Position numbers and translations under genes: made by a program. A stretch of 60,434 nt of DNA, filler included. It is 8 parts of 8 records of this genome, joined end to end, with 100 filler letters (N's around TTAATTAATTAA, not from the genome) between each part and the next. Parts side by side here need not be neighbours in the genome. Positions count along the whole stretch, not along the records: positions 34,344 to 43,933 come from SRR31147125_29806; 7 more parts are not named here. One strand, 5' to 3'. Every line of letters starts with the position of its first letter. Positions within the stretch are counted from its first letter, which is position 1. The notes below the pieces were generated by a model, which was not told the DNA's origin, ran no database searches, and saw only the letters and a list, made by a program, of their open reading frames with translations. Of the stretch, positions 8,942 to 54,753 are shown piece after piece.

Positions 8942-9213
8942 AGACGGTCTTGTATCTTGGTTCGCTTTGGAAATGAAAAATAAAAAGTGATTCTTTCTAA
9001 GGTCAATCCCTATTTGAATGATGTAAATCTCTTGCTATTTAAAATGGTTACTTATCAATACCTCAAAGTTGAGGATACTATGCATTTTTTTTCTGAATTA
9101 ATCAATAGATTCGGAAACCGCTTTCTGATATTTCTTCCCGATGTTCATTACCAAAATTTTAATATGGAAAAATGGAACAGCCGGTAGGGGAAAGAATCAG
9201 TAGGGGAGAAATA

Positions 9214-9882: not shown

Positions 9883-9931
9883 GGAAATTGAACGGTCGAA
9901 AGTTAGACGACTGAAAAACGGGGGAAAGTTT

Positions 9932-12237: not shown

Positions 12238-12337
12238 NNNNNNNNNNNNNNNNNNNNNNNNNNNNNNNNNNNNNNNNNNNNTTAATTAATTAANNNNNNN
12301 NNNNNNNNNNNNNNNNNNNNNNNNNNNNNNNNNNNNN
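12238..12337. other. Artificial contig linker
   Basis: 44 N + TTAATTAATTAA (stops in all six frames) + 44 N. Confidence 0.99.
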
Positions 12338-17347: not shown

Positions 17348-17447
17348 NNNNNNNNNNNNNNNNNNNNNNNNNNNNNNNNNNNNNNNNNNNNTTAATTAAT
17401 TAANNNNNNNNNNNNNNNNNNNNNNNNNNNNNNNNNNNNNNNNNNNN
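17348..17447. other. Artificial contig linker
   Basis: 44 N + TTAATTAATTAA + 44 N. Confidence 0.99.
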
Positions 17448-22709: not shown

Positions 22710-22809
22710 NNNNNNNNNNNNNNNNNNNNNNNNNNNNNNNNNNNNNNNNNNNNTTAATTAATTAANNNNNNNNNNNNNNNNNNNNNNNNNNNNNNNNNNN
22801 NNNNNNNNN
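22710..22809. other. Artificial contig linker
   Basis: 44 N + TTAATTAATTAA + 44 N. Confidence 0.99.
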
Positions 22810-28562: not shown

Positions 28563-28662
28563 NNNNNNNNNNNNNNNNNNNNNNNNNNNNNNNNNNNNNN
28601 NNNNNNTTAATTAATTAANNNNNNNNNNNNNNNNNNNNNNNNNNNNNNNNNNNNNNNNNNNN
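28563..28662. other. Artificial contig linker
   Basis: 44 N + TTAATTAATTAA + 44 N. Confidence 0.99.
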
Positions 28663-29287: not shown

Positions 29288-30971
29288 CTATTCCGGCATC
29301 GAGAAGAACGTGATTCGGGTGCGAGCGCCCTTCGGTTCATTGTCTTCCAGTTCGATCTGCGCACCGTGGGCAGCCAGTACCTGATAACAGATGGACAGAC
29401 CGAGTCCGGTACCGTTTTCTTTTGTAGTGAAATAGGGATCAAAAACCCTGTCGATAACACCTCTGTCGAAGCCCGGTCCGGTGTCCGTGATATTCACAAC
29501 CAGGTCTCCATCCCGACCGCTTGTCAGACAAATTCAATGACATCTCCTTCTCCGGTCATTTCAAGGGAATTGGTGAGGATATTCGTCATCACCTGCTCGA
29601 TTTTCAGCACATCGAAGTAGAAACAATCCCTCCGGGCGTCGGATTCGAACCGGACAGCCACGCCCTTTTCAGCACCCAGCAGTTCAAACTTTCTATGGAC
29701 GTTCCCCAACAGCCTTTCCATGGAAAACCTTTCCAGGCTCAGCTCATTCGGTTTGGCGATTTCTAGGATCTCCCGAACGAAGCGGCCGGCATTGGCGATT
29801 TCGTGACTGATGATATCTTCGTATTTCCGGTTATTTTCCTTGTTCTTCGATTGGATCGCCATCTGTATCACCTGAAGGGGATGGCGGATTTCATGGGCCA
29901 TTCGGGAGGAAATCCGGCCGAGGAAACTGAATCGATCATCTGTACGCAGTTGAATGTTCCGCTTGTTCAGCATATTGAAGGCATTGGCCAGGGACTGAAG
30001 CTCATCATTGGTCTTCACAGATATCTCGTTGTTGAAATCTCCCTGAAGCATTTTGTTCACCATTTCGGTGAGAGAGACGATGGGATTGGAGATAAGTTGA
30101 GATATCCCGATGGAAATCACACTGATCATGACAATGATGAGAATCATGATGAGGATGTAGAATCGGATGAAGGCTCCATGCTGGAAGAACAGGGCGTCTC
30201 TACCGATGCTGCCGACTAGTTTCCAGTTGTTGATGAGTGTGGTGACAAAGATACTGCGGTCTTTTCTGTGCTGGTTGGTTGTATGAACCTCACCCCAGGC
30301 GTCATGCTCCGTTTCGCCCATGAGACTGATGTCCGAGTGGGCGATAATCCGGCCTCCAGCATCGCCGCCGGTGTGCTGCGAGATGTCGACAAGGGCGATG
30401 TCATCGAACATATCGTAGGTGTAGTAGCGAAGTAGTCGTCGGAGCTCCGATAAATCGATCGATCCACCGAGCAGGCCGGTGACACGTCCGGCTTTCTTGA
30501 CCGGAACCGCGAAGATAACGATTCCTTCCAGTGCCGGGTCATAGCGCTGGTCGGGCACATAGTACATAAACAGGAGCTCCCCCGTGAAAAACCGTTGGAA
30601 ATCCTCATAACCGGTGATTGTTCCACTGTGGTTCCCGGTGCTCCAGTAGTCACCATTTTCGGCGAAGAACCAGAAGTGTTCGAAGTCAAAGGATTGATTG
30701 CTCCATCGCTGCAGCAGATATTCCCGGTATCGAGTCTGCGCTCCTTCGTTGAAGGTTTCCGACCCAGCCAGTATCATCAGCTCCCGGACTCTACCGGAAA
30801 CCCAATCGCTGAGCACCCGGGAGAGATTCAGCATCTGCAGGTCCTTCTTCTCGATCATTGATGCTTCATAGGAGTTCCGGTAGGTGATGTAGGCGTAGCT
30901 GGAAAAGATGATGTAGATGCTGAGTGTGGGGATGAGTACCTGAAAAAAACCCGGTACCTGAGGTGTTTCAT
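29288..30971 (-). CDS. Membrane sensor histidine kinase (Cache-like, HAMP, HisKA, HATPase); indels near 30948 and 29530
   Basis: ATG overlaps the upstream stop (ATGA); MAHEIRHPL, NILTNS, DTGPG, FTTKENGTGLGL. Confidence 0.88.
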
Positions 30972-32305
30972 CGTTCCAGCTTGTAATACAGTCCCCGCTG
31001 GGAGATTCCCAGCGCTTCGGCGGTGGCCTTTTTATTACCTTCCAGCATATCAAGAGCCCAGTTGATGTAGGAATCCTCCAGTCTCTGGAGGGGCACCAGT
31101 CCTATTTCGTCGAACTTCATCGGCAGGGTTTTCAGAGATTCCAGGAAGAGTGATTCTTTCCGGATGGAGTCCCCTGTCTCAACGATGACGGCCCTTTCGA
31201 TACAGTTCCTCAATTCCCTGATGTTGCCCGGCCATGGGTACTCCAGAAGTGCTTCCCGGGCCTCCGGAGAGAATCGGCATTTCCTGCGGGACAGCTTCAG
31301 GCACATCTGCGAAAGAAGCCAGTCCGACAGGATGGGAATATCTTCCCGGCGCTCTCTCAGCGGCGGAATCATCAGGGGGAAAACGTTGACTCGGTAGTAA
31401 AGGTCTTCCCGAAACGATCCCTCACGGCATTTATCCGCGAGAATCTCATTGGTCGCGGCGATGATCCTCACATTGAGTTGAATCCTCTTGTTGGAACCCA
31501 GGCGGGTGATTTCTTCTTCTTGAAGGAACCTGAGGAGTGATACCTGAGCTTTGGGTGACATCGCCTCGATTTCGTCGAGGAACAGGGTGCCGCCGTCGGC
31601 GAATTCAAGTTTTCCCATCTGGTCCCTGGAAGCCCCGGTAAAAGCTCCCTTCACGTACCCGAACAGCTCACTTTCCAGCAGGTTCTCCGGCAGGGCACCA
31701 CAGTTGATAGGCACAAAATTGCTGTCCTTCCGTGAGCTGCCCTTATGAATGAGTCGGGCCAGAACCTCTTTGCCGGTACCGGTTTCTCCCTGAAGCAGGA
31801 CGGTTGAGTTGACGTTCTTCAACGGCCCGATTTTTTCCAGCAGGGAAAGATACGCTGCCGAACGACTATCGAAGCAGTACTCGTCATTCTTGTCCATTTC
31901 CTGAGACAGGAAACGGTTAGTTGTTTTCAGTTCTCCGTGATCGATTGCTTTCTCGATAATAATCAGGAGTTCGTCGATCTGAATGGGTTTGGTCAGGTAG
32001 TCAAAGGCGCCGAGTTTCAATGCTTCAACAGCGTTCTCGATGCTGCCGAAGGCGGTCATCATGATGAATTGGCTATCGAAATGACTTTTATTGCAGAGGC
32101 CGAGGAGCTCCAGTCCGTTCTTCCCCGGCAGCACAAAGTCCGAAACCACCACCTGGTACCGGTAGTCGTTTAACCGTTCCTCCGCCTCTTCATAGGAATG
32201 CGATATGTCGACGGTGTATCCTTTCGGAAGCAGCAGATCACGGATGATCGCAGCCAGAGACACATCGTCATCGACAAGGAGTATTCGGATTGTTCTCTGA
32301 TTCAT
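30968..32305 (-). CDS. Sigma54-dependent response regulator (NtrC family)
   Basis: REC domain; GETGTGKE; ESELFGYVKGAFTGA; WPGNIREL; C-terminal HTH. Confidence 0.95.
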   Translation of the reverse strand: MNQRTIRILLVDDDVSLAAIIRDLLLPKGYTVDISHSYEEAEERLNDYRYQVVVSDFVLPGKNGLELLGLCNKSHFDSQFIMMTAFGSIENAVEALKLGAFDYLTKPIQIDELLIIIEKAIDHGELKTTNRFLSQEMDKNDEYCFDSRSAAYLSLLEKIGPLKNVNSTVLLQGETGTGKEVLARLIHKGSSRKDSNFVPINCGALPENLLESELFGYVKGAFTGASRDQMGKLEFADGGTLFLDEIEAMSPKAQVSLLRFLQEEEITRLGSNKRIQLNVRIIAATNEILADKCREGSFREDLYYRVNVFPLMIPPLRERREDIPILSDWLLSQMCLKLSRRKCRFSPEAREALLEYPWPGNIRELRNCIERAVIVETGDSIRKESLFLESLKTLPMKFDEIGLVPLQRLEDSYINWALDMLEGNKKATAEALGISQRGLYYKLER

Positions 32306-32341
32306 TTCAGGGACCGATACTATATTCGCTCCAGTTGGACG

Positions 32342-33646
32342 TCAAGGAAATGGTGTCCAGTGCATCGCACAACCGATGACAGCCAAGACAAAATCGCTGC
32401 CCCGCCCTGTTGCCCAGGGAATGAATTTCCCGGGTTGGCCTGTCGGAAACCTCCCAATGAACAGCGTTGCCCCGGATCGGGGATTGTACCACCAGGCATC
32501 AGCCTCCGGTCCTTCGACGGTAGACAGGTTGATCTCCATCGTCCTGCCTTTGGGAGTGTAGGCAAGCACCAGGCTGCAGTCATCGGTGGATGCACAGACG
32601 ACGTATCCATCATCTTCAGGATTGCTGTTCAGAATCAGGTCCTGATTCTGCCGAAGATCCTGCCATGGCAGCTTCTCCAGGAAGGCCTTCATCATTCCTG
32701 TCTGTTTCGCTCCGGGAAGATCCAGCGCCTCCTTCCAGCCAGTTCGCGCCTGGATGATCGGTTCTCTCCCCGGTTCGTACATCTGCCAGACATCATTGCA
32801 GCCATAGGTATATCCGGCTGCGCCAGCCAGGATAGACCACCAGGCCGAGACCCTGACATCCCAATCATCCAGCCAATGCTCATCTTTCTTATCCCAGAAC
32901 ACATTGCCGATATTCTCGTATCTGGCTTCCCCGTTGATGATCGGCCTGGTGCGGCTCTTCTTCTGATCATGCTGAAGATATCGATACTCCTGTTCACTGC
33001 AGTCGTGTCCGCTCTGGTACATGTCCAGATCCATCCAGGATTCATCGAAATGATCGCTGGCCAGATTTGTGTTCAGTGGGTGATAGGTCATCAGATGGTC
33101 CGGAGCCGTCTCTCTGATTCCAAGTGCCATTCTCTGGAATATCTTCTTCTGAACGTCGGTCTCTGGTATCCTGTCTCCTCCGAGAATCCAGACGATATTC
33201 GGTCGATTCCGATAGCGTTCTCCAAGGATGCGGCCGTAGGTCCACGCATTCTCAGGAGTGAAAATCAACGGTCCTTTCCCCCACAGAAGGCTGATTTTGT
33301 CGCCCCAAGTCGGCAGGAGTCCGACGATGAGCTCCCTTTTTTCCGCCTCGTCCAGGACAAAATCGACATGCTTGAAATAGCACTCGTTGATCCGGCATGG
33401 ATCGTCATCAATAAGGGGCGTGTGGCCGTAGGCATTGCCTTCATGAATACCATCGAGTTCACCGAGTATGACCGTCTGGATGACATTGAAGCCCTTGGCA
33501 AGTCGGTTATCCAGATAAAAACTGATATCCTCCCTTGTCAGGCGGTGGATAAGTTCCCAGGCCGTATCACCTGTCCAGAGAAAAGGTCGACCCTCCGAAG
33601 TTGTCAGGTATCGACCATTTTCGGAAATTCTGATGCCTTTGTTCAT
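32342..33646 (-). CDS. DUF4038 / GH140 (apiosidase-like) glycoside hydrolase with C-terminal putative collagen-binding domain
   Basis: GRPFLWTGDTAWEL, GFNVIQ, NIVWILGGD, YQSGH, NGEARYE, GYTYG, WWYNPRSG. Confidence 0.85.
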   Translation of the reverse strand: MNKGIRISENGRYLTTSEGRPFLWTGDTAWELIHRLTREDISFYLDNRLAKGFNVIQTVILGELDGIHEGNAYGHTPLIDDDPCRINECYFKHVDFVLDEAEKRELIVGLLPTWGDKISLLWGKGPLIFTPENAWTYGRILGERYRNRPNIVWILGGDRIPETDVQKKIFQRMALGIRETAPDHLMTYHPLNTNLASDHFDESWMDLDMYQSGHDCSEQEYRYLQHDQKKSRTRPIINGEARYENIGNVFWDKKDEHWLDDWDVRVSAWWSILAGAAGYTYGCNDVWQMYEPGREPIIQARTGWKEALDLPGAKQTGMMKAFLEKLPWQDLRQNQDLILNSNPEDDGYVVCASTDDCSLVLAYTPKGRTMEINLSTVEGPEADAWWYNPRSGATLFIGRFPTGQPGKFIPWATGRGSDFVLAVIGCAMHWTPFP

Positions 33647-33744
33647 GTCGCTACTTCCTTTTGATGCTCCGGCATGGCTTCTTTCTTTATTCTTTGACAT
33701 TCTCGTATTTCGCTTTTTTTATGATATGTATAATAAAACCGAAT

Positions 33745-34243: not shown

Positions 34244-34343
34244 NNNNNNNNNNNNNNNNNNNNNNNNNNNNNNNNNNNNNNNNNNNNTTAATTAATTAAN
34301 NNNNNNNNNNNNNNNNNNNNNNNNNNNNNNNNNNNNNNNNNNN
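34244..34343. other. Artificial contig linker
   Basis: 44 N + TTAATTAATTAA + 44 N. Confidence 0.99.
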
Positions 34344-34675
34344 GAATGCTCTCGGAAGAGGGTTTTTCTACAGGCTCGTTAGCTGTGAAGAATATGGGAA
34401 CATTCATATGTTCTGATTGCCTGTTCCCCCTTACAGGGCGCAAACACCAAATCAGACGTCATGCCAAGCTTGCAGGCCATCCCGTTCTGGGGGATCACAG
34501 GTACAGTTTAAAACTGGCCGTGGAGTTTATCAGGACCCGTCATACCTTTTCCCGTCAGGCCCTTCATTCCCTTTCTCTGGAACCGGAACTTCCCGGCACA
34601 CATCAGACCAGACGCTTTGAATCCGCCATCCCTTCCGAATTCCTGCGCATTATGGAAGACGATAAAGTTGCATAA
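34344..34675 (+). CDS. RluA-family pseudouridine synthase, C-terminal fragment
   Basis: TGRKHQIRRH...GHPVLGDHRY...RQALHSLSL. Confidence 0.8.
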
Positions 34676-34788
34676 AGTATCTTGGGGGGAACCAGGACGG
34701 GTCGTCCCCTTTGAGACGGGCTGTTTCTTTAACAATGGGAAGGCGTTACGGGGAGAATTCTGCGGTCTGAAAATGTCCCACCTACCCG

Positions 34789-34959
34789 TTGGAGTTCGGG
34801 GGATAGTGTTTTCGGGTCAGGCGTGCAAAGTTGCAAACTTTTAAAGGCGAAATCCCAGGGAGGCAGTGTTGAAAGATTGGAACTTGAAAACGGCTAAGTA
34901 GACGTAGTTGATCTGTTGACCTGGAAGCCCCGGCAACACGCAGCTCATCCAAACTCCAA
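34789..34959 (+). ncRNA. Candidate rod-shaped ncRNA (6S-like architecture)
   Basis: Nested complementary blocks TTGGAGTT/AACTCCAA, GTGTT/AACAC, GGTCAG/TTGACC, TTTTAAAG/CTTGAAAA, followed by a terminator. Confidence 0.35.
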
Positions 34960-34962
34960 AAC

Positions 34963-34990
34963 AAAAACCCGACCTCGTGCCGGGTTTTTT
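34963..34990. terminator. Bidirectional-type rho-independent terminator
   Basis: AAAAACCCG-ACCTCGTGC-CGGGTTTTTT. Confidence 0.7.
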
Positions 34991-35156
34991 AATTAAAAAG
35001 TATGATGTTCGGCATAGAGGTTGCTCATCAGTTAGGGGATTCAAATGAAGGAGGTTGCAATAGGATGGCAAGGGTAGCCAGATTGCAACTTGTGCTTTTC
35101 TCGCTGCCGGTGGTAGCAGTTCGGGCATTTCTTGGCATCAAAAAAGTGACATTAGC

Positions 35157-36344
35157 ATGGATAAGGCAGAGTTTATAAGCCGGTTTTTCATTGACAAATC
35201 ATTGGCAGAAAATATCGGTTTCAATCCTTATTTTCAAAATATCGAAAGCGGAATGAGCGGGCGAATTCAAGTTCAGGGAAAGAGCCTGATAAATCTTGGA
35301 ACGAACGATTACCTTGGCCTTTCAAACAAGCCGGAAATCAAGAAAGTTGCTTTGAAAGCCATGGATGAATTCGGCGTGAGTATGTGCGGGACGCCAATTG
35401 TCATTGGCCAGAGCACTCTTAACCGCAAGCTGGAAAATAAGTTAGCTAGTTTTTTTAAACAGGAGGATGCGCTTGTATATCCCTCCTGTTACCAGTGCAA
35501 CACCGGCATTTTTAATACCCTGACGAATGAAGAAGATATCATCATCTTTGATAAGGATATTCATTCCTCGCTTATGAATGGAATTGCCCTGACCAAATCC
35601 AAATGGCGGACATTCCCGCATAACGATCTGGGCAGGCTGGAAGACATTTTAAAGAAAACGCAGGGTCACCGCATGCGTTTCATTGTTTTTGAAGGGCTTT
35701 ACAGCACTGGAGGCGATTATCCCGATCTGGCGCAGATTATACAACTGGCAAAAAAATATGACGCTTTCACCATTATAGACGATTCGCATGGCGTTGGTAT
35801 TCTCGGGCAGACGGGTCGAGGGGTAGTGGAAGTGTATAATGAATTTGAAGGCATAGACCTTATTACTTTCTCGCTGGGTAAAGCTATCGGCACCTTTGGC
35901 GGCGCTATGGCAGGAAGTGAAAAGATTGTCGATTACTTTCGTTATTCCTCGCCGATGTATTTTTACTCGACTGCATTGCCGCCAGGAATTGCTGCCGCTA
36001 CCATTGAATCTCTTGGCTATATCAATCAGGCGAATGAGGAGAGAGAGCGCATAAAGGGGTTTGCCGGGAAAGCCTATGCAGCCCTTAAATCGATGGGCTA
36101 TACGCTCTCGGTCAGCGATACTCCGCTTTTTTCAGTGATTTCAAAGACTTCGGAAGAGACTTTCCTGCTCACCAAAAAACTGTTCGAAAAGGGTGTATAC
36201 ACCGTCCCATTCATACCGCCAAGCGTTCCGAAAAACTCCCCGCGTATCCGGTTGACGTTTAACGCTTATTTGTCAGAAATTGAGATTGATCAGGCTATAT
36301 CAGTATTTGAGGAAATTAAGAAGGAATGCCCAAATATTATTTAG
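35157..36344 (+). CDS. PLP-dependent alpha-oxoamine synthase (serine palmitoyltransferase/BioF/KBL family)
   Basis: NPYFQNIES, NLGTNDYLGLS, HSSL, FPHND, DDSHGVG, SLGKAIG (PLP Lys), PPSVPKNSPRIR. Confidence 0.9.
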   Translation: MDKAEFISRFFIDKSLAENIGFNPYFQNIESGMSGRIQVQGKSLINLGTNDYLGLSNKPEIKKVALKAMDEFGVSMCGTPIVIGQSTLNRKLENKLASFFKQEDALVYPSCYQCNTGIFNTLTNEEDIIIFDKDIHSSLMNGIALTKSKWRTFPHNDLGRLEDILKKTQGHRMRFIVFEGLYSTGGDYPDLAQIIQLAKKYDAFTIIDDSHGVGILGQTGRGVVEVYNEFEGIDLITFSLGKAIGTFGGAMAGSEKIVDYFRYSSPMYFYSTALPPGIAAATIESLGYINQANEERERIKGFAGKAYAALKSMGYTLSVSDTPLFSVISKTSEETFLLTKKLFEKGVYTVPFIPPSVPKNSPRIRLTFNAYLSEIEIDQAISVFEEIKKECPNII

Positions 36345-37246
36345 TTATGAACCCGACCTGTTGTAGCGGGAGAAGCCGCAGGCATTTCGATTCAATCATC
36401 TCCTCTTTTCGGCAGGCTGGTGAAGCCGAATGCCATTACACTACCGGTTATGAGGATGCCACACGTGTGGCTTGTCAGGCTATCAGGCAGGGCTTTGATA
36501 TCATAGTGGCCGTTGGCGGCGACGGCACTATTAATGAAGTTCTCAATGGCTTTTTTCTGGAAGCGGATTTGAGCTCGAAGGCGAAGCTCGGTGTTGTTCA
36601 TGTTGGCACCAGCCCCGATTTTAACCGCTATCACAAAATCCCCACAGATATTGGGGCAGCAATTGAGGTCATCAAAGAGGGGAAAACCAAAAGGATTGAT
36701 CTCGGAAAAATCGCTTTTAGCGATTTGCACGGACAAGAGGTTACCCGTTATTTTGCCAGTAACGCCAATATCGGCCTTGGTCCTATAGTTGCCGACAAGG
36801 CCAATTCCCGGCACCGTAAATATCTTGGTGATATTCTGGGGACGCTTGTCGCCACTCTTGGCTCTCTGGTTCAATTCCGCCCTGTCACTCTATCGGCAAA
36901 TATCGATGGCCATACTGCTATTCTCAAGGAAATGGTAAATGTCACCATCGGCAAAGACCCATACATAGCGTCGGGCATGCGGGTATTTCACCATATCGCA
37001 CCGGACGACGGGAAATTGTATCTGCTGTCTGTACAGCATAAAGGGCTACTCCCCATGTTAATGCACATCCCGCATCTCTACATTGGCGACTTCCTGAAAT
37101 TTGAAGGAGCTAGCGTCCGATATATCAAAAAGATTAAAGTTGAAAGCCATGAACAGTTGCAGGTCGAGTTTGATGGCGATGTCAAGGGGCATCTCCCTGC
37201 CACAATAGAAATAACCCCAAAAGCAATAGATGTGATTGTACCTTGA
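36326..37246 (+). CDS. Diacylglycerol/sphingosine kinase family protein (YegS/DAGK_cat)
   Basis: NP, VAVGGDGTINEVLNG, DLG, PDDG, EFDGD; overlaps both neighbours. Confidence 0.9.
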   Translation: MPKYYLVMNPTCCSGRSRRHFDSIISSFRQAGEAECHYTTGYEDATRVACQAIRQGFDIIVAVGGDGTINEVLNGFFLEADLSSKAKLGVVHVGTSPDFNRYHKIPTDIGAAIEVIKEGKTKRIDLGKIAFSDLHGQEVTRYFASNANIGLGPIVADKANSRHRKYLGDILGTLVATLGSLVQFRPVTLSANIDGHTAILKEMVNVTIGKDPYIASGMRVFHHIAPDDGKLYLLSVQHKGLLPMLMHIPHLYIGDFLKFEGASVRYIKKIKVESHEQLQVEFDGDVKGHLPATIEITPKAIDVIVP

Positions 37247-40200
37247 AAATATTAGTTACAGGCGCAAGCGGTTTTTTAGGCTCGCATATCGTGGGCAAGC
37301 TTCTCGAAGACGGTCACAAGCTCAGATCCCTTGTACGCCGGGATAGCGATTTGAGCTTTTTGCCCCTTGAAAAAGTTGAAATCATACAGGGAGATTTGAT
37401 CGAACCGGGTAACCTTAACGAAGCCATAAAGGGCTGTGATCTTGTTGTCCACTCCGCTGCCAGAGTTTCCGACTGGGGAGATTATCAGAGCTTCTACAGC
37501 GCAAATGTTATCGGCACCCGCAACCTGCTAAATGTCGCAAAACGAAGCGGGATCAAGCGCGTTATTTTGATAAGCAGTAATGCGGTGTTAGGTGAGGAAA
37601 ATTGTACTAGGTCAAAAAAGGAAAGCGATCCTTATAACCCCACAATGCCCTATCTTTCCCGCTTTTTTAAGTGCCCGATGAATTTTTACCGGGAAACCAA
37701 GGCGCAGCAGGAAAAGGAAAGCATCACTTTTTGCGAAGAAAACAATATTTATCTGACTGTTCTGCGTCCGGTTTGGGTCTACGGCGAAAGGGAGTTTCAT
37801 TCCGGGCCATATGAATTCTGCCGGACGGTTCTGAGTGGCATGCCGGTTTTGCCGATGGGAAACGGCAACCGTCTGCACTGCGTCAATGTGAAAGACGTTG
37901 CAAGGGCAGTCAGCCTTGCCATTGAGAAAGAGTTGGATGGCGTACGGATTTATAATATCGGCAATGAGGAAGCCGCCAAAACCAGAGATTATTTCAACCT
38001 CTTTTGCCGCAGTCTTGGAGTTAAGCCGCCGCTATATCTTCCTTTCTGGTGTTTTTATCCACTCGGTTTTCTTCTGGAAGTTCTGGCGAGATTGTTTAAT
38101 TCGTCAAAGCCTTTTCTCCTGACTCGCGCAAGGGTGAATTTTTTTACTGCAACAATATTTACGATATTGGCAGAGCCAGAGAAGAACTTGACTTTACCGC
38201 CCAGATATCACTTGAAGAGGGCATAGAGGAGGCTGTGGCATGGTGGCGGGATAACGGGTTTTTTGACAGGAAACGCAAACAAAAAAATATCAAAGGCATA
38301 TCCCGCATCATTCTCGATGCGCGAATAGCGACCGCAGTTCTGACACACTATCTGAAACAGGTATTCAAGCGGGAAGTAACTCTGGGGCAGTACCTTCAGT
38401 TCATAAAAAGGCTGCTTGTTTTTTCTCGCTTTTTGAAAAACTACAAGGCGGTTAAAATCAACGGCGGTTATAAGCTGCATCTCTATTTACCGGCCTTTGG
38501 CACCAAAGCTTTTTATACGGCGCTTGATAAATTCGTGAGCGGAAAAACGGTGCCTCTCATGTCGTTTATTCCATTACCAAAGTCTGCCCTTGCCATTGCG
38601 AGCATTGCTACCAGAAACTGGATGTGAACAAGAGCATGCCAAAGGAATTGATGCTGGAGACAGCAAAGAAAATTCAGGATGCCGGAGTCTCACTGTTTGA
38701 TATTGAAGGAGGTGAGCCTTTCGCCCGTTATGAGCGACTGCTGGCAGTTGTTGAGGCACTGGATGAACGCAGCGAAATTTGGATAAACGCGACCGGACAT
38801 CTGGCGAGTTTCGAACAACTCGTGGAGCTGAAGCAGGCAGGATTGTATGGTTTGATGGTCTCCATCCATCACCCGGAAGCTGAAAAACACGATACATTTT
38901 TGGGTAGAAAAGGTTCTTTTCCGACGGCAATTAAGCTGATCCGGATGTGCCGCAGAATTGGTCTGTCCACCGTCATCAATTGCTGCCCGTCAAAGGAAAT
39001 GATCGAGGACGGCGGTTTGCAAAGTATAATGGAAATTGCGGACGGGCTTGGATGTTCTTATGTCCAGTTCATTCACGAAAAGCCATCGGGAAATTGGGCT
39101 CATCGCGGTTCAAGTATGATGGAACCGGAATTTCTCGAAAATCAGATAAAACAACACATCCGGTACAACAAGGCGGCCCGATACCCGCCCGTTTTATTTC
39201 AGATTTTCGAGGCAAGTTCTCTTGGATGTACTGCCGGAGGCGTTGAGCGGTTCTACGTGAATGCCGATGGTGAAGTGCAACCTTGCGAATTTCTCAATAT
39301 ATCTTTCGGCAATGTCCGTGATGAGAACTTTGAAGTTATCTATGAAAGGATGCGCAAGTTTTTTCCGGCAGCAACTCAGGACTGGCTTTGCAATACGGAG
39401 AATAGTCTCATTCAGGAATTTATCAAAGAGCGTGGCATTACACGCTTTCCCATTGAAAGAGATCTGACGATTGAACTCGTTAAAAAATTCCAGTCCAAAA
39501 AAGATGTTCCCTTTTTCAAGGATCTGAACTTGAGCCATAGCGTCCAAAGCATAGCATGGGCTTATATTAAATCCATGAGGCCCTACCTTTTCTTTCTTTC
39601 CGGTATGGCCGGATGGACAGGGATTGTTTATGCCGGGGGCGAAACGTCTCTGTTAAAAACCGTGCTTATCCTGGCCGTCGTTTTTCTGGGATGGGGGTTC
39701 AATCAGGTTGTTAATGACATCCTCGGGTTGAAAGAGGACCGGGTGAACGCTCCGCACCGCCCACTGGTAAGTGGTGAATTGCCGTTGAACTGGGCAATAG
39801 CCATTACGGCAATTCTCTTTTCAGCAGGGCTTGCGGTAACAAGCTATCTCAATCCTTATGCGGTTATGATCTATCTGGCAGTTTTTGTACTGAATATTTT
39901 TTACGAGTGCATGAAGGGGATCCCGCTTGCCGGAAACGCGGTATTTGCGCTGTTCATGCCGCTCTGCCTTTATTATGGGGCTATGAGCGCAACTGATGCG
40001 GGGCCGGAAATTCTGGCCGATAGTAGTTTATGGCCGGTTGCCACCGCGTTCTTTTTGGTCAGTTTTGTAATGTGCTTTTTACGTACTACAAAGATTATGA
40101 AGGTGACAAGCTTGCGGGTAAAAAAACCCTTGTGGTCCTTCTTTCGCCGGAAAAAGCACGATTTCTTAATTTTCCTTTCAGCCTGCTGCCCTTCTTCCTG

Positions 40201-40470
40201 CTGTTCGTTCTCCCGTTTGAAGCAAATCTGTACTTTACGGTTTCCATGCTTTTGAATTTCATGATGTTTCAATATACGGCTTGGCTGTTTTTCAAAGATA
40301 GGGCAGGCGAGAAGACTTATTATAATCTGAAATGGAATTTCAGCGCCGCCGTATTGTTCGAGGTTTCCTTTATAATGCTGGCGGATCCACAACTGGGGGT
40401 AATGCTATATGGTTTAGGTTTTTTTGGCGTATTGGCTCTTTTCCATCTGCACAAAGATCATTTAAGCTGA
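37243..40470 (+). CDS. Predicted three-domain fusion: extended SDR (NAD-dependent epimerase/dehydrogenase) + radical SAM/SPASM + UbiA prenyltransferase; three homopolymer indels (~38140, ~38545, ~40078)
   Basis: TGASGFLG and YRETK (SDR); CPCHCEHC = CxxxCxxC at 38585-38608, EGGEP and GCTAG...DGEVQPCEF (radical SAM); NDILGLKED..N..HRPL and YKDYEGD (UbiA). The radical SAM-UbiA junction is in frame with no repair. Confidence 0.75.
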
Positions 40471-40494
40471 CATTTGAAGACAGGAGAAAATACT

Positions 40495-40889
40495 ATGAGC
40501 AAATTTATCAAACCTCTTTTTCTGGTAGGCGGGCTGTACGACTTTTTAATAGGTCTGGCTTTTCTGATCATTCCGTACACTATTTTCGAATTTATCGATG
40601 TCGCCCTTCCCAGCCATATCGGCTATGTTCAGTTTTCGGCGGCATTTCTAATGATTTTCGGCCTGATGCTTTTTAGCATAGCCCGTGACCCGTTAGCCAA
40701 TAAAAACCTCATTTCCTACGCTGCCATGATAAAGATCGCTTACTGTGCGATCGTCGGCGGGCATTACGTGATCGGCAACATGCCGCTTCCTTGGGTTTTT
40801 TTGGTATTGCCGATTTCTTGTTCCTGCTGGCTTTTGTCTGGGCGTATAGGGAAATAGGAAAGAACGTAGAGGCACATGGTCAGGCTTGA
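40495..40889 (+). CDS. Small four-helix membrane protein, poly-T indel near 40800
   Basis: AGGAG RBS; four hydrophobic segments; repaired C-terminus WVFFGIADFLFLLAFVWAYREI. Confidence 0.7.
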
Positions 40890-41221
40890 ATGATTGCCGG
40901 ATGACAAAAAACAGAATAGAAGTATTGCCTGTGGAAAAAGAAGGACTGTTCCCAGGTGTGAGGAAAATTCATAATTCGGAAGAAGTCGGGTATGAAAAGA
41001 TGCCGACATTAGTCTCAATCTTTACGCAGCACCAGTTTCCTCCTATATGGTTTCACTGAATCTCAACCAGTCCCTCTAAATGAAAATGGGTGGCCCCTAT
41101 TTGACCGACCCAGATTCTATGCTTGCGACGGTCAAAAAAAAGTTCCCGGCGCCAACGAGTGGTATATGATGGTTAACTGGTGGGTACGCATCTTAATCTT
41201 AAGCGATAAGGAGCAAAAGTT

Positions 41222-41317
41222 ATGAGCAAAGGCCAGGACACCAAAAAATCAGATAAAAAAGAACCGGCAAAAACCATGAAAGAAAAAAGGGCTGCAAAAA
41301 AGGAAAAAAAAAGCTGA
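41222..41317 (+). CDS. Small lysine-rich protein (31 aa)
   Basis: AAGGAG RBS 8 nt upstream; MSKGQDTKKSDKKEPAKTMKEKRAAKKEKKS. Confidence 0.6.
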   Translation: MSKGQDTKKSDKKEPAKTMKEKRAAKKEKKS

Positions 41318-41527
41318 AAAGAAGTAAAAAATTAGAGGGCAGTTTTGGGGATAGTACCTAGATTTTTCTCTTCAGTGGAAAGAGCTGGAGATAGGTATGC
41401 TTGCCCCTGTACCCCCCGAAGATCGAATCCCTATTGGTCATGCCTGCGCCCTGATCTCGCCTGCAGGATGTGCTCTGTGCTAAGATCATTCCCCACTTAA
41501 AAAATAACGGATAAGGACTGACCTGGA

Positions 41528-43830
41528 ATGCTTGAAATAGAAAGAGATGCGACCATCCGGATTCTGGTCGATGAGACCGGCCTGAAGCGCGGGCCGGTGG
41601 AACAGACCGTGGCCCTCCTTGAAGAGGGGGCGACGGTCCCTTTTATCGCCCGTTACCGCAAGGAGGCGACGGGGAGCTCGATGAAGTACAGATTCGTCTG
41701 CTGCAGGAACGTCTCGGGTATCACACCGAGCTCAACGAGCGCCGCCGGACGATTCTTAAATCGATCGAGGAGCAGGGGAAGCTGACCGAGGAGTTGCGGT
41801 TGAAAATCGAGGCCACCCGCCAGAAAACCGAGCTGGAGGACCTCTACCTGCCGTTCAAGCCGAAGCGTCGCACCAAGGCGTCGATTGCCAGGGAGCGGGG
41901 CCTGGAGCCGCTTGCCGAGCAACTGTTGGCGGCACGTGGGAGCGGAGACGCGGCCCTGCAGCTGGCGGAACCTTTTGTCAATCCCGAACTGGAGGTTGCC
42001 ACGGCCGCCGATGCCCTGACAGGGGCCGGTCATATCCTTGCCGAACAGTTCGCCGAGAACGCCGAGGCACGGGCGCTGGTCCGCGAGTTGACATGGCAGG
42101 AGGGGCTATTCTGTTCCCAACCGGTCAAGGGCAAGGAAGGCACGGTCAGCAAGTATGAAATGTACTACGATTTCAAAGAGCCGATCCGGCAGGTTCCTTC
42201 CCATCGGATGCTGGCCATGCGCCGGGGCGAAACGGAGGAAGTGCTGCGGCTGCGCATCGAAGCACCGGAGGAAACAATCCTCAGCTGTCTCCAGGGACTT
42301 TTCGTTGAGCCTGAAAGCCGCTTCGCCGAGTTGCTTCGGGAGATCATCCTTGATGCCTACAACCGTCTGCTGGCCCCTTCCATCGAGGTGGAATTGCGCC
42401 TGCAGGCGAAAAATGCCGCCGATGACGAGGCGATCCGGGTCTTTGCGGAAAACCTGCGTCATTTACTGCTCGCCGCGCCAGCCGGTAGCCGTAAAGTTCT
42501 GGGCGTCGATCCCGGACTGCGGACCGGCTCCAAGCTGGCGGCCGTCGATGCGACCGGCCGTTTTCTCGAACACATGACGATCTATCCCCATGCCGGAGGC
42601 GAAGCCAAGGTTGAATCCGCCAAACGTGAGCTGTTGCGTCTTGTCGAGGCACACGCTATGGAGATGGTGGCGATCGGCAACGGGACCGCCGGGCGTGAAA
42701 TGGATCAGTTTGTCCGCCAGTGCCTGAAAGAAGCGGGTTTGAAACCGCAGGTAGTCATGGTCAGTGAAGCCGGCGCCAGCGTTTATTCGGCGTCCGATAT
42801 CGCCCGCGAGGAATTTCCTGATCTCGACCTGACCGTGCGCGGCGCTATCTCCATTGCCCGGCGTCTGCAGGATCCCCTGGCCGAACTGGTCAAGGTCGAT
42901 CCCAAGAGTATCGGGGTCGGCCAGTATCAGCACGATGTCGGTCAGACGGCGTTGAAAAAAGCCCTCGATGAGGTGGTGGAATCCTGTGTCAACTATGTCG
43001 GGATCGACCTGAACACCGCCAGTTGGGCGCTCCTCAGCTTTGTCTCGGGGATCGGCGAGTCGCTGGCCAAGGCGATTGTTCGCCTGCGCGACAGCCAGGG
43101 TACCTTTGTCCGTCGCGAGCAGTTGCTCGAGGTGCCGCGCTTAGGAAAGAAGGCGTATGAGCAGGCCGCCGGGTTTTTGCGCATCAGAAATGGCGAACAG
43201 GCGCTGGACAATACAGCGGTGCATCCGGAGCGCTACAAGTTGGTGGCGCGGATGGCGGCGGACCTCGGTGTCTCCCTGCCGGCGCTGATTGCCGAACCGA
43301 TGCTCCTCGATAAAATCAGGCTGGAGCAGTATGTCGGTACCGATATCGGCCTGCCGACGCTGCGTGATATTATCAGCGAATTGAAAAAGCCGGGCCGTGA
43401 CCCGCGCGAGACGTTCGTTGCGACCGGTTTCCGTGAGGACGTCATGGAGGTCAAGGATCTCAAGGAAGGGATGTCTCTCAACGGTATCGTGACCAATGTC
43501 GCAGCATTTGGGGCTTTCGTCGATATTGGCGTTCACCAGGACGGTTTGGTGCATGTCAGTCAGCTCGCCGACCGTTTTGTCAAGGACCCGAATCAGGTGG
43601 TCAAGGTGGGCCAGCCGGTTCAGGTCAGGGTCTTGGCGGTTGATCTGGAGCGTAAGCGGATCGGCCTGACCATGCGCAGCGGGGCGCTGGAAAAACCGGA
43701 AAAAACATCGGAGCAAAGCCAGCGACCCCAAAAACCGCAGCCAGAGAAAAAGATGGCCAAGCCACAGTCCGATCTGGCCGCCGCGCTGGAAAAATCCGGA
43801 TTCCGGGTGAAAAAAGGAAAGAAAGCTTAG
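41528..43830 (+). CDS. tex: Tex/YhgF RNA-binding transcription accessory protein, poly-G indel near 41672
   Basis: EGATVPFIARYRKEATG(E)LDEVQIR, LEDLYLPFKPKRRTKA, GVDPGLRTG, VGQYQHD, S1 domain FGAFVDIGVHQDGLVHVS. Confidence 0.95.
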
Positions 43831-43835
43831 CCGCT

Positions 43836-43933
43836 ATGTCGAACGAAAAAACATCAAAGCCTGACCCGATCTACATGACACCCGCCTGTGCCCGGAAATT
43901 GAGGGCGGAACTCAAAGAGACTCTTTACCAGCT
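43836..43933 (+). CDS. Transcription elongation factor GreB-like, N-terminal fragment
   Basis: PIYMTPACARKLRAELKE resembles the GreA/GreB N-terminus; adjacent to tex. Confidence 0.55.
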
Positions 43934-44033
43934 NNNNNNNNNNNNNNNNNNNNNNNNNNNNNNNNNNNNNNNNNNNNTTAATTAATTAANNNNNNNNNNN
44001 NNNNNNNNNNNNNNNNNNNNNNNNNNNNNNNNN
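43934..44033. other. Artificial contig linker
   Basis: 44 N + TTAATTAATTAA + 44 N. Confidence 0.99.
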
Positions 44034-45406: not shown

Positions 45407-46291
45407 TTACACTTCATTTTTAATAAGTTTTGCCATAACTACAAATCGTCCGTTTTCGCTGGTTGTACATGTAGAAAGGGTAAGTACTATATCATCGGGT
45501 GAAAAAGTAGGAGCCGTTTTATACATGGATTCTTGATAGCATGTCTTTAAAAATGAAACCCACATTTCATCATGAGGGAAATCTGTATCTATATAATAAA
45601 AGTCCGTTGTTGTATCAAATACAGCAAAAACTTCCCAATTTTTCGAACCGCTTAAAGTATCAAACTGAATAATTCTATGCTCGTTGAAAAAATCTTCATC
45701 TGAATAAGATATAAGACCTTTAAACATTGTCCCGTTTTTCATCCTGTGACCATATAAAATTATATTTCTTGTTATAGATAAATCTAGTGAATCGCATCTA
45801 TAGTCCATGAAAATTGAACCACGTATGTTTGGTAATTTTACAAATGACCTGTTCATATAAAACTTATTATCATCAGCCTGTACAACTGGATAATCCACTT
45901 TTGTTCCACTGATTTTAATATACCCAACGGTATCCTTGTTTTTCTTAATGTATTCGTCTAGATAATCTATAGATCGTGTTGGCTCTACAGCGTTTATAGT
46001 TGGGCTTAAATCATCGGTTTCGATATCTGTTTTTTCTGTTGCCTTCAAATTGGATTCTGCTATATAAGAATCGTTAGAATCAATTTGTGTTTTTTCAGTC
46101 TCATTATTCTTTAACGAAATAGACTGGAAAAGATAAACACTAAAAAAACCAACGGTTAAAGAAACTATGCCAACTAAAGATATCCAAAATATTTTTTTGG
46201 TTTTGAAGATATCAGTGCTATCTTTAATTTTTATAAATTTGAGTTTTAATTTGAGCCCTAAAATTCTAAGCCAAGTAATAAAATTATCCAT
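45407..46291 (-). CDS. srtB: Class B sortase
   Basis: N-terminal TM helix; YPVVQ..DN.FY; IILYGHRMKNGTMF; LTLSTC...RFVV. Confidence 0.9.
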   Translation of the reverse strand: MDNFITWLRILGLKLKLKFIKIKDSTDIFKTKKIFWISLVGIVSLTVGFFSVYLFQSISLKNNETEKTQIDSNDSYIAESNLKATEKTDIETDDLSPTINAVEPTRSIDYLDEYIKKNKDTVGYIKISGTKVDYPVVQADDNKFYMNRSFVKLPNIRGSIFMDYRCDSLDLSITRNIILYGHRMKNGTMFKGLISYSDEDFFNEHRIIQFDTLSGSKNWEVFAVFDTTTDFYYIDTDFPHDEMWVSFLKTCYQESMYKTAPTFSPDDIVLTLSTCTTSENGRFVVMAKLIKNEV

Positions 46292-46501: not shown

Positions 46502-49500
46502 GTGAAAAAATCAATATCGATCCTTTTAGTGGCTTGCATAATTTTGAGTGGAATATTGCCACACACTGCTTATGCCAATGATGGAGACGACCCTATTCCG
46601 TTTGTACAAAAAGACCCTGATACCTATTGGTCTAATCAAGATGTAACTCTTACTCTTACAGATGACGATGCTGTTGATATTTATTATCAAAGTAAAGATG
46701 CCGATGAAGATAATTGGTCTGCTTTGGTAAAATACAACGCTCCTTTAATATACTCACAAAATGGATCAATCACAATTAATGCTCTATCTAAAGATATGAA
46801 CGGTGATACTTTAGAAGAACAAAATGACATATCAATAAATATTGATAAAACCAACCCAACACTTTCAGTTCAAGTGAACAACCCAGTATGGACAAGAGAA
46901 AATATTACAATATCATTTGAAGCGGATGATACTTTTAGTGGTGTTAATGCAATATGCTTAGAGGATGGCACGGTTGTAGCATCGGTAGATTCAAATGATG
47001 ATGATGATATTTTTACGGCATCATACATAGTTTCAACTAATGGCGATTATACATATTATGCAGTGGATAATGCTGGAAACAAGTCAAGTAATATTCAAGT
47101 TCAAGTTTCAAAGATCGATAAAAACTCTCCAACTGATGCGCCAGACATATCAGCTTCACCAGAAAGCGCTTCATGGGTTACAGGACCTGTGCAGGTTACT
47201 TTGGATTGGACTGACAATACACCAGCAGGTGAAAGCCAAGAAAGAGCTCAATATAGCGATGATGGTAGTACGTGGGAAGATTATGTTTCTCCTCTTACAC
47301 TATCGCAAGAGGGAACACACACCATTTATGCAAGAACAAGAGATTTAGCAGGGAATAAATCGGATATTAACCAACTAACGATAAAAATTGATAACCAAGC
47401 ACCGCTATTAACTGCATCAGGTATTGGTTCCTCTTGGACAAATAACGATATAGTGGTAACGCTAAATGCGTCTGATACTACAAGTGGTGTTGCTGGTATA
47501 TATTCTAGTGATGGTACACAGTTAACAGCAAGCTCAAGTATTGAAAGAACGTTTACTGAAAACACAGAATCTGCTGTGATCTATTATGCTATGGATAATT
47601 CAGGAAAGAAATCTGATGATTATCCAGTTAATATAAGCAATATTGATAAATCAGCGCCAAATGCGCCAAACATATCAGCCACCCCTAGTGGATGGTCGCA
47701 TCATAATGTTACGATTGAGCTTTCTGAGGTTGCGGCGGCAGTAAACCAAAGCCCTGAGCAAAGACAGTATAATGTTAATGATTCAACATGGGAAAATTAT
47801 GAATCTTCTTTTGAGGTTTCACAAGAAGGAGAATATAGTGTTAAAGCAAGAACTAAGGATGAAGCAGGAAATACATCATCGGAAAATAGTGCTACAGTAA
47901 AAATAGATAAAACTGATCCAACAATAGCAGATGTAAGCTATACTCCAGATTCAGATAACCAAGGTAAAGGAACGGTATCAGTAACTATATCCGATGCTCT
48001 TTCTGGAATATATGAGAAAAAATATTCAATAGGCGAAAAAGCGGTTAGTTATTTTGATGATGAGGGACAAGGAATTGACATTCTTGATTCATCATTTGTA
48101 ATAGATGGTGCTGATGGCGACGAGTATACGGTTTATGCAAAGGATAACGCTGGTAATGTAACTATTGTAAATGTACACGACCAAGTTGCTAGTTTAAATA
48201 CTTATCCTTTAATAGACGACATTTCTGATAAAAGCATTGATGAAGACGCTGGGATTCAAACTATAACTATAACAGGAATATCAGATAACGAGACAACAGA
48301 CCACAATGACTTAGATGTAGACTATGATTATTCGGGATCGATTCTACAAAATGTTTCGTTAGTTGATAATGATGATGGTACGGCAACGCTTACATATAAG
48401 CCGATAGAAAACAAAAACGGTGAAGATTCGATTACAATAAATGTAACGGATGAACACAATTTAACTTCTAGTGTAACGGTAAAGATAACTGTTAATGCAG
48501 TGGATGATATCCCTGTTGCGGTTAGCGATACAAAAAATGCAAATGAAGGCGATATTGATATCGATATTGCTGTTTTAGGAAATGATTCAGATGTTGAGGG
48601 TAATGTTTTTATAAACAATTTTGATGTGTTAACAGCAAAAGGCGGAACAGTTGAAAAAAACATTGCAGGTGATGGATTTGTTTATAATCCTAAAAACTCA
48701 AATTTTTCTGGTATTGATACCTTTACATACGATGTAATAGATGAAACTGGAAACATCAGTAATACGACAACTGTTACAATAAATGTTCAAAACGAAAACG
48801 ACTTACCTATAGCTGTTGATGATAATCACGAGCTTAACGAAGATCAAACTGTTGCAATTGATGTTTTGCATAATGATATTGATGAAGACTTAGCATATGT
48901 TGATGATGAAATATTAATTATTTCGATAGTTGATTATGATGATAGTAGCGTAATAATTTTTGATGATAGTGATGCTGAAAATCCTTTAGACCCAAGCACT
49001 TCTGTCCAAGTTGAACATGGTGTAATCACATATGATAGTGATAACAGAGATTTAATGTTTACTCCAGACAGCAACTATTATGGCAGTTTTAGTTTTGATT
49101 ATACAATTACCGATATGGCTGGAGAGTCTTCGCAAGCTACAGTTTATATTTCTGTTTTAAGTATAAATGATGAACCTGAATTCACTGGATTAGCAGATCC
49201 ACCAACTTATACGTTTAATGAGGACACAGCTACGTATGATATTGATTTTAGTATAAGTGATGTTGAGATAAGTGACGCGAATGGTTTGACAATAAGAGCT
49301 GTTTCGAAGAACACATCTGTTTTGTCAAATTCAGAGATTGAAATTTTAGGGCCGGATGATGAGGATGGCGCTACAACACTAAGATTAAGTCCAAGAGCAA
49401 ACGTATATGGTACAGCGCAAATCCAGTTGGAGTTATCCGACGGTAATACCATAACTTCTGAAATACTGACAATTGAAATAGTAAATGTAAACGACCCGCC

Positions 49501-54653: not shown

Positions 54654-54753
54654 NNNNNNNNNNNNNNNNNNNNNNNNNNNNNNNNNNNNNNNNNNNNTTA
54701 ATTAATTAANNNNNNNNNNNNNNNNNNNNNNNNNNNNNNNNNNNNNNNNNNNN
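54654..54753. other. Artificial contig linker
   Basis: 44 N + TTAATTAATTAA + 44 N. Confidence 0.99.

Follow-up and report, generated by a model that had tools for sequence, protein, structure and literature searches.

An alpha-oxoamine synthase operon with UbiA prenyltransferase and radical-SAM partners that probably makes an undescribed membrane lipid

Genes of the operon and their reading frames

The window considered here is a stretch of 60,434 nucleotides (nt) composed of eight contigs, one of which (34344-43933) carries a set of closely packed genes on the plus strand at 35157-40889. These genes encode an alpha-oxoamine synthase (AOS), a lipid kinase, an extended short-chain dehydrogenase/reductase (SDR) joined to a radical S-adenosylmethionine (SAM) enzyme, a UbiA-family prenyltransferase, and a small hydrophobic protein. 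The locus is best explained as an intact, co-transcribed five-gene biosynthetic operon, and we propose that it probably makes an undescribed membrane lipid.

The first gene (35157..36344) encodes a pyridoxal phosphate-dependent AOS of 395 amino acids (aa) with an Aminotran_1_2 domain (PF00155, 159.9 bits), and is followed by a YegS/Rv2252/BmrU-family lipid kinase of 306 aa (36326..37246) with DAGK_cat (PF00781, 92.0 bits) and YegS_C (PF19279, 66.2 bits) domains. The third gene (37243..39540, stop TAG 39538-39540) encodes a protein of ~766 aa that comprises an extended SDR part (~37243-38230; Epimerase, PF01370, 132.7 bits on the open reading frame (ORF) 37243-38226), a helical linker (~38230-38560), and a radical-SAM part whose CxxxCxxC motif reads CPCHCEHC in the restored frame (~38585-38608). 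A DGGGPS-like UbiA-family prenyltransferase of ~313 aa (39530..40470) overlaps the end of the radical-SAM gene; its start is uncertain because the first in-frame start is the TTG at 39530. The last gene (40495..40889, stop 40887-40889) encodes the small hydrophobic protein of ~130 aa, which has no significant Pfam family. A sequence-only reading of this DNA had described genes overlapping end to start with a small membrane gene 24 nt further on, and both features were confirmed: the AOS and kinase genes share 19 nt, the kinase and the ORF starting at 37243 share 4 nt, and the ATG at 40495 follows the UbiA stop at 40470 with a 24-nt spacer that recurs in the closest relative found (locus L089; AOS 77% identical). 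The domains it had named were all recovered by Pfam as well (PF00155, PF00781 with PF19279, PF01370, PF04055 with PF13186, and PF01040).

In the window as assembled, the stretch previously taken for one three-domain SDR-radical SAM-UbiA fusion spans four frames (37243-38226, 38235-38627, 38624-40255, and 40030-40470), and the small gene reads as an ORF at 40474-40857 with its C-terminus out of frame. Tblastn with intact orthologues and three-frame translation yielded collinear pieces in which all breaks are -1, and alignment with L089 DNA placed five single-base gaps across 37243-40857, every one of them on the window side. Public assemblies were also compared over 35157-43900. One contig of 13,966 nt (X1), from a run that is probably of the source sample, covers this stretch completely, differs from it by 8 indels and 0 substitutions, and restores all broken frames. 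Relative to the window, X1 has an additional T behind 38138 and C behind 38552 (both in the SDR-radical SAM gene), G behind 39525 (the radical SAM/UbiA overlap), T behind 40075 (UbiA), T behind 40795 (the small gene), A behind 41133 (intergenic), and G behind 41670 (the neighbouring tex gene), and one base fewer at 41304 (intergenic). The operon holds five of these eight errors and tex one, the other two being intergenic; homopolymer runs of at least four bases contain six of the eight sites, and the AOS ORF shows no indel against X1. An alternative placement of the second break in the A5 run at 38543-38547 was rejected, as the lost base is the C behind 38552. Marine sediment metagenome contigs from a second study (X2-X4), which span parts of the stretch only, contain operon-identical pieces with 0 substitutions across 226-692 nt and confirm two of the eight indels (the T at 38138 in X4 and the G at 41670 in X2).

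Restoring these bases brings SDR, linker, and radical SAM into a single gene, leaves UbiA as a gene of its own, extends the small gene to 40889 (the end coordinate given in the sequence-only reading), and makes tex whole. The proposed three-domain fusion is not one ORF, since the in-frame junction between radical SAM and UbiA arises from the missing G behind 39525. The SDR-radical SAM fusion is real and the radical SAM-UbiA fusion is not, because L089 and an Omnitrophota chromosome (L001) show the same layout: the five products of L089 measure 395, 307, 765, 318, and 128 aa, and L001 encodes a 787-aa SDR-radical SAM protein followed by a 323-aa UbiA with a 14-nt overlap. Homologues of the small gene lie 3' of UbiA in L001, L003, L004, and L089, and on the opposite strand in archaeal loci.

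It could be argued that the cluster is decaying into pseudogenes or is read by programmed -1 frameshifting at T-rich sites, as five frame breaks in the same direction occur in 37243-40889, the first of them coinciding with the heptamer T TTT TTT. However, X1 has the extra base at all five sites and in tex, X4 has the T at 38138, and the orthologues are intact. The X1 assembly contradicts both pseudogenization and programmed frameshifting at the heptamer, and we consider this explanation extremely improbable. Single-base deletions in the deposited consensus thus produce spurious fusions and spurious pseudogenes, and further genes of the window that look split may be affected likewise, such as three overlapping ORFs at 9172-11055 and a histidine kinase at 29524-31053 that lacks an ATPase domain.

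Conservation of the gene set and its genomic setting

A HMMER search with a 543-aa piece of the radical-SAM region matched 3657 proteins at E <= 0.001, 55 of them at E <= 1e-30. Single-protein scans of genome and metagenome contigs found no relative, whereas alignment-based scans did. We aligned the radical-SAM part and used the alignment to scan a single genome from each species. A relative was encoded by 342 of 373 candidate stretches, and the best 80 of the 342 were retained as loci, all of them from metagenome-derived records. The window's pieces served as tblastn queries to count partners up to 8 kb away from the radical-SAM gene. The kinase was present at 73 of the 80 loci, UbiA at 72, AOS at 55, SDR at 55, and all four partners together at 48. 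Where the flank reaches 6.5 kb or more on both sides (31 loci), the respective counts are 30, 29, 27, 27, and 25, and missing partners are mostly due to short contigs. The co-occurrence anticipated for these genes was thus found, and they very probably form a conserved functional biosynthetic module.

Two layouts were recognized. Type A, that of the window, runs AOS-kinase-SDR-radical SAM-UbiA-small gene and was found at 10 loci whose AOS are at least 40% identical to that of the window. Type B runs UbiA-radical SAM-kinase-[ThiL-like]-[OYE-type flavin reductase]-AOS-SDR and was found at 45 loci with AOS 27-38% identical. All-versus-all clustering of ORFs placed a ThiL-like gene (AIR synthase superfamily) in 48 loci and an OYE-type gene in 40; they sit between kinase and AOS, for example at 11822-14034 of L007. 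No other neighbour was widely common in the 80 loci, including any acyltransferase, acyl-ACP (acyl carrier protein) synthetase, or separate ACP. The lack of an acyltransferase that had been remarked on at the locus holds for the whole contig and extends to the gene families common to the 80 loci. The bCerS N-acyltransferase in particular is absent from the contig and from the conserved neighbours of the 80 loci, the carrier genomes not having been searched genome-wide.

The carriers run to hundreds of bacteria, anaerobic and uncultured, plus some archaea. By record title, they comprise Omnitrophota, Planctomycetota, Verrucomicrobiota/Kiritimatiellia/Lentisphaerota, Armatimonadota, Sumerlaeota, Riflebacteria/Ozemobacteraceae, Elusimicrobiota, Bdellovibrionota, Acidobacteriota, and Zixibacteria, together with Thermoplasmatota, Woesearchaeota, and Pacearchaeota. 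The archaeal assignment is more than a label, because at L074 the genes on either side of the cluster encode a proteasome subunit, FttA (an archaeal termination factor), and a peptidase of the presenilin type.

Fusions among the partners were also found. SDR and radical SAM share one ORF at 3 of 54 loci (L001, L003, and L004) and at L089, and a 787-aa protein of the order SDR-linker-radical SAM (P0121) is among the best HMMER matches. UbiA and radical SAM share one ORF at 0 of 69 loci; however, two proteins (P0122 and P0124) are UbiA-linker-radical SAM fusions, and stand-alone radical-SAM and UbiA proteins are also among the best matches. The protein search returned no fused relative of 952-2715 aa, which is weak evidence on the matter. 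Among more distant radical-SAM relatives, one is fused to a PlsC-type acyltransferase (P0204), and others are fused to UbiE/CMAS-like methyltransferases (P0240 and P0256), DUF362 (P0129), or TusA (P0166). A 422-aa protein (P0137) joins the N-terminal third of an AOS, with a MCGTPIATG loop, to the C-terminal two thirds of a radical-SAM protein; it probably arose by deletion or misassembly, but it shows that both genes adjoin in another organism.

The operon had been suspected of horizontal acquisition because it looked more AT-rich than the adjoining tex gene (41528..43830, plus strand; Tex_N through S1 domains, with the Tex_N piece at 41528-41785). The contrast exists, as the operon has a GC content of 46.0% (0.49 at third codon positions) and tex 60.0% (0.71), and the join between 60% and 46% GC was recovered in the separate 13,966-nt assembly too. 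However, contig GC in the window ranges over 35-54%, which takes in the operon and makes tex the outlier, and we therefore rejected the contrast as a sign of transfer. Composition is uninformative on acquisition here, since the window combines contigs of ~35% and ~50% GC. Transfer would be compatible with the patchy distribution over phyla and with the mixture of taxa within AOS clades.

The remainder of the window calls for brief description. Its seven joints (12238-12337, 17348-17447, 22710-22809, 28563-28662, 34244-34343, 43934-44033, and 54654-54753) each consist of 44 N, TTAATTAATTAA, and 44 N. The GC of the eight contigs runs from 35.0% (the last two) up to 53.6%, and because of this span the joined record may mix organisms. 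On the operon contig, promoter-like sites (9 against 9.7) and terminator-like sites (8 against 9.1) occur at chance level, no Rfam family was found, and a short lysine-rich ORF of ~32 aa lies between operon and tex at 41222-41317, where assemblies disagree in its A-runs. Elsewhere, a sortase-domain gene (45407-46291) adjoins a 2735-aa ORF (46502-54709) on a contig of 35% GC, and an apiosidase-like gene (32342-33700, minus strand) is accompanied by an antisense ORF of 488 aa without a Pfam family (region 32198-33700).

Enzyme families and a proposed pathway

The AOS belongs to its superfamily by its PF00155 score and by a full active-site set, as His136, Asp208, His211, Lys242, and Arg363 align with all eight AOS references. 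It falls under the NCBIfam cut-off of every named family: KBL (316.8 versus 460 and 278.7 versus 493), BioF (310.5 versus 426.45), Spt (NF047600, 283.8 versus 640; NF047599, 262.2 versus 500; NF047603, 203.7 versus 670), and ALAS (217.3 versus 339). As a positive control, the Spt of Parabacteroides scores 683.8 versus 640 on NF047600. Among solved structures, KBL matches best (225 bits), followed by Spt (199), BioF (171), and ALAS (161). No biotin (bio) genes were found on the operon contig.

We placed the enzyme in a quick IQ-TREE phylogeny of 90 rows with SH-like approximate likelihood-ratio (SH-aLRT) support, comprising the window, 54 cluster-linked AOS, 27 of 120 listed homologues, and eight references taken from plasmid records (2 KBL, 3 BioF, 2 ALAS, and the Parabacteroides Spt that passes the Spt cut-off). 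The window AOS falls in a 40-row clade (SH-aLRT 99) with all ten type A and two Ozemobacter synthases, and this clade leaves out KBL (own clade, support 100), BioF, ALAS, and the single Spt reference. A second clade unites the 42 type B and Riflebacteria/Bdellovibrionota synthases and is sister to Spt (support 92, on a long branch); the backbone among the window's clade, KBL, and Spt with type B is not resolved in this tree, in which Spt has one long-branch reference. The prediction that the synthase would stand apart from BioF and KBL is thus upheld by both the tree and the NCBIfam scores.

Both the SPT-like NPYF..IES segment and the MCGTPIVIG loop that had been pointed out are present in the AOS translation. 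The loop had been called unusual for the family, and this holds in that S[ML]CGTP replaces an Arg-bearing loop: KBL, Spt, ALAS, and two of three BioF references carry (S/T)(V/S/T)R there. The third BioF reference, from Klebsiella, likewise lacks the Arg (GSG). S[ML]CGTP is fixed throughout the window's AOS clade; in type B the corresponding residues are G(A/S)V(S/A)L, again with no Arg. In ALAS and Spt, the loop lines the substrate pocket.

These results bear on the possibility that the operon is an ordinary bacterial ceramide pathway (Spt, reductase, and kinase) with the UbiA and radical-SAM genes as mere neighbours. The type B AOS are indeed sister to true Spt (SH-aLRT 92), and PMC11334938 reports Spt-like enzymes from anoxic water in 38 phyla of bacteria, often with no CerR or bCerS close to them. 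However, the window AOS lies outside the Spt clade, the neighbourhood has no conserved acyltransferase, the radical SAM is fused to the SDR and, in P0122 and P0124, to UbiA, and UbiA and the kinase stand beside the radical-SAM gene at 72 and 73 of 80 loci regardless of the AOS clade. We therefore regard this explanation as very improbable.

The kinase passes the cut-off of the lipid-kinase subfamily model TIGR00147 (139.6 versus 118.65) and carries VAVGGDGT, with the GGDG motif, and it reaches no NCBIfam cut-off for the equivalogs DgkB, YegS, or MamU. Among solved structures, it matches the diacylglycerol kinase DgkB best (96.6 bits), and it is 26% identical to a YegS-family kinase of Parabacteroides that stands beside Spt. 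In that locus (L081, 1783-4140, Parabacteroides distasonis), Spt (NF047600, 684 bits versus a cut-off of 640) and the kinase are arranged head to head. The best NCBIfam matches of the SDR are families that act on lipids, HpnA (134.8 versus 367.65) and OleD (113 versus 580), both under cut-off.

The UbiA protein belongs to its superfamily, with PF01040 scores of 66.3 and 35.5 against a threshold of 34.2 on the window's two pieces, and both Asp-rich motifs are present (NDILGLKED and YYKDYEGD). For the UbiA of L089, the best solved relative is the archaeal-lipid enzyme DGGGPS (6m31, E 2.4e-14), followed by 4-hydroxybenzoate octaprenyltransferase (2e-4) and chlorophyll synthase (3.5e-3). Scores against the two DGGGPS equivalogs stay below cut-off both for the window piece (64.2 versus 296 and 59.2 versus 353) and for the intact L001 protein (73.6 versus 296 and 78.9 versus 353). 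GGGPS (PcrB family), which produces the substrate of DGGGPS, rose above cut-off in none of five complete carrier genomes, and the same search found it in all four archaeal control genomes among its seven matches. Since GGGPS is absent from all five carriers, UbiA is not a canonical archaeal-lipid enzyme here, and canonical archaeal ether-lipid synthesis was rejected. A tetrapyrrole pathway with ALAS-, AhbD/NirJ-, and ChlG-like steps was also rejected, as the AOS is far from ALAS and UbiA is nearest to DGGGPS. All five complete carrier genomes encode a polyprenyl synthase, so prenyl donors are available.

The availability of donors is relevant to a different assignment of roles, in which the kinase or kinases build an alkyl or prenyl diphosphate donor stepwise, for example by polyprenol salvage, and AOS and SDR make the acceptor that UbiA alkylates. 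In type B, the YegS-type kinase and then the ThiL-like enzyme would perform the two phosphorylations. This idea draws on the ThiL-like gene, which resembles a phosphate-to-diphosphate kinase and lies directly 3' of the YegS-type kinase in 48 loci, on a second YegS-type kinase 3' of the small gene in L001, and on the presence of DPANN archaea and Omnitrophota among the carriers. However, the window and L089 have a single kinase and no ThiL-like gene, the ThiL-like protein scores far under all ThiL cut-offs (110 versus 184), and the polyprenyl synthases make salvage unnecessary in the five complete carriers. We consider donor synthesis by the kinases rather improbable.

The radical-SAM part belongs to the radical SAM/SPASM group (PF04055, 36.9 versus 29.5; PF13186, 27.8 versus 21.5; CPCHCEHC). 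Only three C-terminal Cys are invariant in the family, which suggests a twitch-like domain with a single auxiliary cluster. None of the named equivalogs examined (AhbD, NirJ, PqqE, HpnH, and MoaA) reached its cut-off, the best being AhbD (70.4 versus 500), and the L007 protein best matched GeoRSP (102.6 versus a cut-off of 400). A structural model of the L089 linker and radical-SAM part from a 50-sequence alignment (pLDDT 93.8, pTM 0.92) places two long N-terminal helices ahead of the core.

Taken together, a lipid product is favoured because UbiA resembles DGGGPS, the kinase resembles DgkB, AOS homologues are fused to ACP, and a radical-SAM relative is fused to PlsC; that the operon makes a lipid of some kind is, in our view, reasonably likely. 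The ACP evidence comes from AOS homologues of ~50-55% identity, mostly labelled Omnitrophota, that bear an N-terminal ACP domain, and for this reason the AOS substrate is probably an acyl-ACP. In the scheme we propose, the AOS would form an alpha-amino ketone from an amino acid and an acyl thioester (probably acyl-ACP), and its reduction by the extended SDR would yield a sphingoid-type base, which is a long-chain amino alcohol. The DgkB/YegS-type kinase would phosphorylate a hydroxyl of this sphingoid-type lipid, and UbiA would attach an isoprenoid from a prenyl diphosphate to a neighbouring hydroxyl or amine, beside the phosphate-bearing carbon; the kinase and UbiA steps could occur in either order. 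The prenyl group would then form a second chain in the role of the N-acyl chain of ceramide. The SPASM/twitch radical SAM, fused to the SDR via the helical linker, may carry out oxygen-independent tailoring of the lipid. For this five-enzyme scheme as stated, whose chemistry we infer from enzyme families, we estimate a probability of roughly 0.4. The best reading of the product is an isoprenoid-bearing sphingoid phospholipid of anaerobes. More specifically, and only tentatively, it could be a sphingoid-base phosphate with an N- or O-linked polyprenyl second chain, bridging sphingolipids and archaeal isoprenoid lipids, in which a membrane-associated radical SAM might remodel the lipid without oxygen, for example by desaturation, hydroxylation, or carbon-carbon coupling.

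Several observations weigh against this scheme. The AOS scores KBL at least as high as Spt (225 versus 199 bits among structures and 317 versus 284 in NCBIfam), and a short-chain AOS substrate accordingly has some room; ACP-fused AOS enzymes are not known to be limited to long chains. KBL with a neighbouring SDR-family gene likewise pairs an AOS and an extended SDR, and one such pair lies on an Agrobacterium plasmid. The type B AOS and SDR fall in a different clade from those of the window (24-30% identity), and because of this the amino-ketone module may differ between layouts. At L074, kinase, radical SAM, and UbiA occur without an AOS within 8 kb. The ThiL-like and OYE-type proteins reach no equivalog cut-off, and the scheme gives neither a role. 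Finally, Foldseek matched the radical-SAM model to generic SPASM/twitch enzymes only (SkfB, E 4.6e-13 and TM 0.51; SuiB, BlsE, anSME, MoaA, and PqqE), and neither Foldseek, a solved-structure profile search, nor the ESM Atlas gave a hint of function for this step.

Alternatively, the product might not be a bulk membrane lipid. A KBL/threonine-dehydrogenase-like pair would then supply a short amino alcohol, and phosphorylation, prenylation, and radical modification would turn it into a prenylated small molecule such as a cofactor, carrier, or signal. KBL is the top-scoring named family for the AOS, a KBL gene adjoins an SDR-family gene on the plasmid, and SPASM/twitch enzymes mainly act on small molecules or peptides. 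However, the AOS clade stands apart from KBL with a support of 99 and the enzyme lies under the KBL cut-offs, and the ACP fusions, the DgkB-like kinase, the DGGGPS-like UbiA, and the PlsC-radical SAM fusion all indicate lipids. Such a small-molecule product is therefore unlikely.

Comparison with known systems

The combination of genes is undescribed in the full-text literature searched, which consisted of open papers without supplements. In the open text of the Spt survey (PMC11334938), prenyl, radical SAM, and kinase each have 0 mentions, and none of the five operon proteins falls under a curated NCBIfam equivalog. The operon may represent a widely conserved alternative in which an AOS-initiated pathway gains its second chain via an archaeal-type prenyl transferase. 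If this is true, the pathway spans the divide between bacteria and archaea, from PVC bacteria and Omnitrophota to Thermoplasmatota and DPANN, and it could explain some of the unassigned nitrogen-containing lipids in anoxic waters and sediments. Confirmation of the product would establish a new class of membrane lipid, a candidate biomarker of uncultured sediment anaerobes, and a new substrate class for UbiA enzymes and for one family of SPASM/twitch radical-SAM enzymes.

Bacterial ceramide synthesis (Spt, CerR, and bCerS, with the kinases CpgB and dhSphK1) resembles the operon in its AOS start, its epimerase-type SDR, and its GGDG lipid kinase, and the open text of PMC10331486 places bacterial ceramide and dihydrosphingosine kinases in the same broad YegS-type family. 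The operon differs in that the window AOS lies outside the Spt clade and under three Spt cut-offs, in that no bCerS belongs to the conserved set, and in that a UbiA prenyltransferase and a radical SAM are obligate partners. Bacterial pathways of the sphingolipid type are now recognized in dozens of phyla from anoxic environments, and many have neither the known reductase nor the known acyltransferase close by (PMC11334938). The operon module occurs on archaeal contigs, whereas Spt-like proteins are not reported from archaea in the data set of that survey as far as its open text goes.

The KBL and SDR-type threonine dehydrogenase pair provides the highest-scoring AOS family and the same layout of an AOS beside an extended SDR. 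In contrast to KBL, the operon AOS falls in a separate clade, scores 317 versus a KBL cut-off of 460, has GTP in place of the SVR loop, and has ACP-fused homologues, and the operon adds the kinase, UbiA, and radical-SAM partners. Archaeal DGGGPS, in turn, is both the best solved relative and the best named NCBIfam match of the operon's UbiA, and the Asp-rich motifs are common to both; a DGGGPS-like role would add a second, isoprenoid chain next to the phosphate-bearing carbon. However, the operon UbiA is far under the DGGGPS cut-offs, the second Asp of its first motif is replaced by Gly (NDILGLKED), its carriers lack GGGPS, and its partners are an AOS, a kinase, and a radical SAM.

The SPASM/twitch enzymes (SkfB, SuiB, BlsE, anSME, MoaA, and PqqE) share with the operon enzyme a CxxxCxxC core and a C-terminal Cys-bearing auxiliary domain. 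The similarity is at the level of TM ~0.5, and the operon enzyme adds a conserved N-terminal helical extension of ~125 aa as well as fusions to SDR or UbiA, features that the known enzymes do not show. GDGT-MAS, which acts on lipids, matches the operon radical SAM weakly (E 1.4e-4). Set against all of these systems, we regard the operon as a probable AOS-initiated lipid pathway with an unprecedented partnership of a prenyl transferase and a radical-SAM enzyme.

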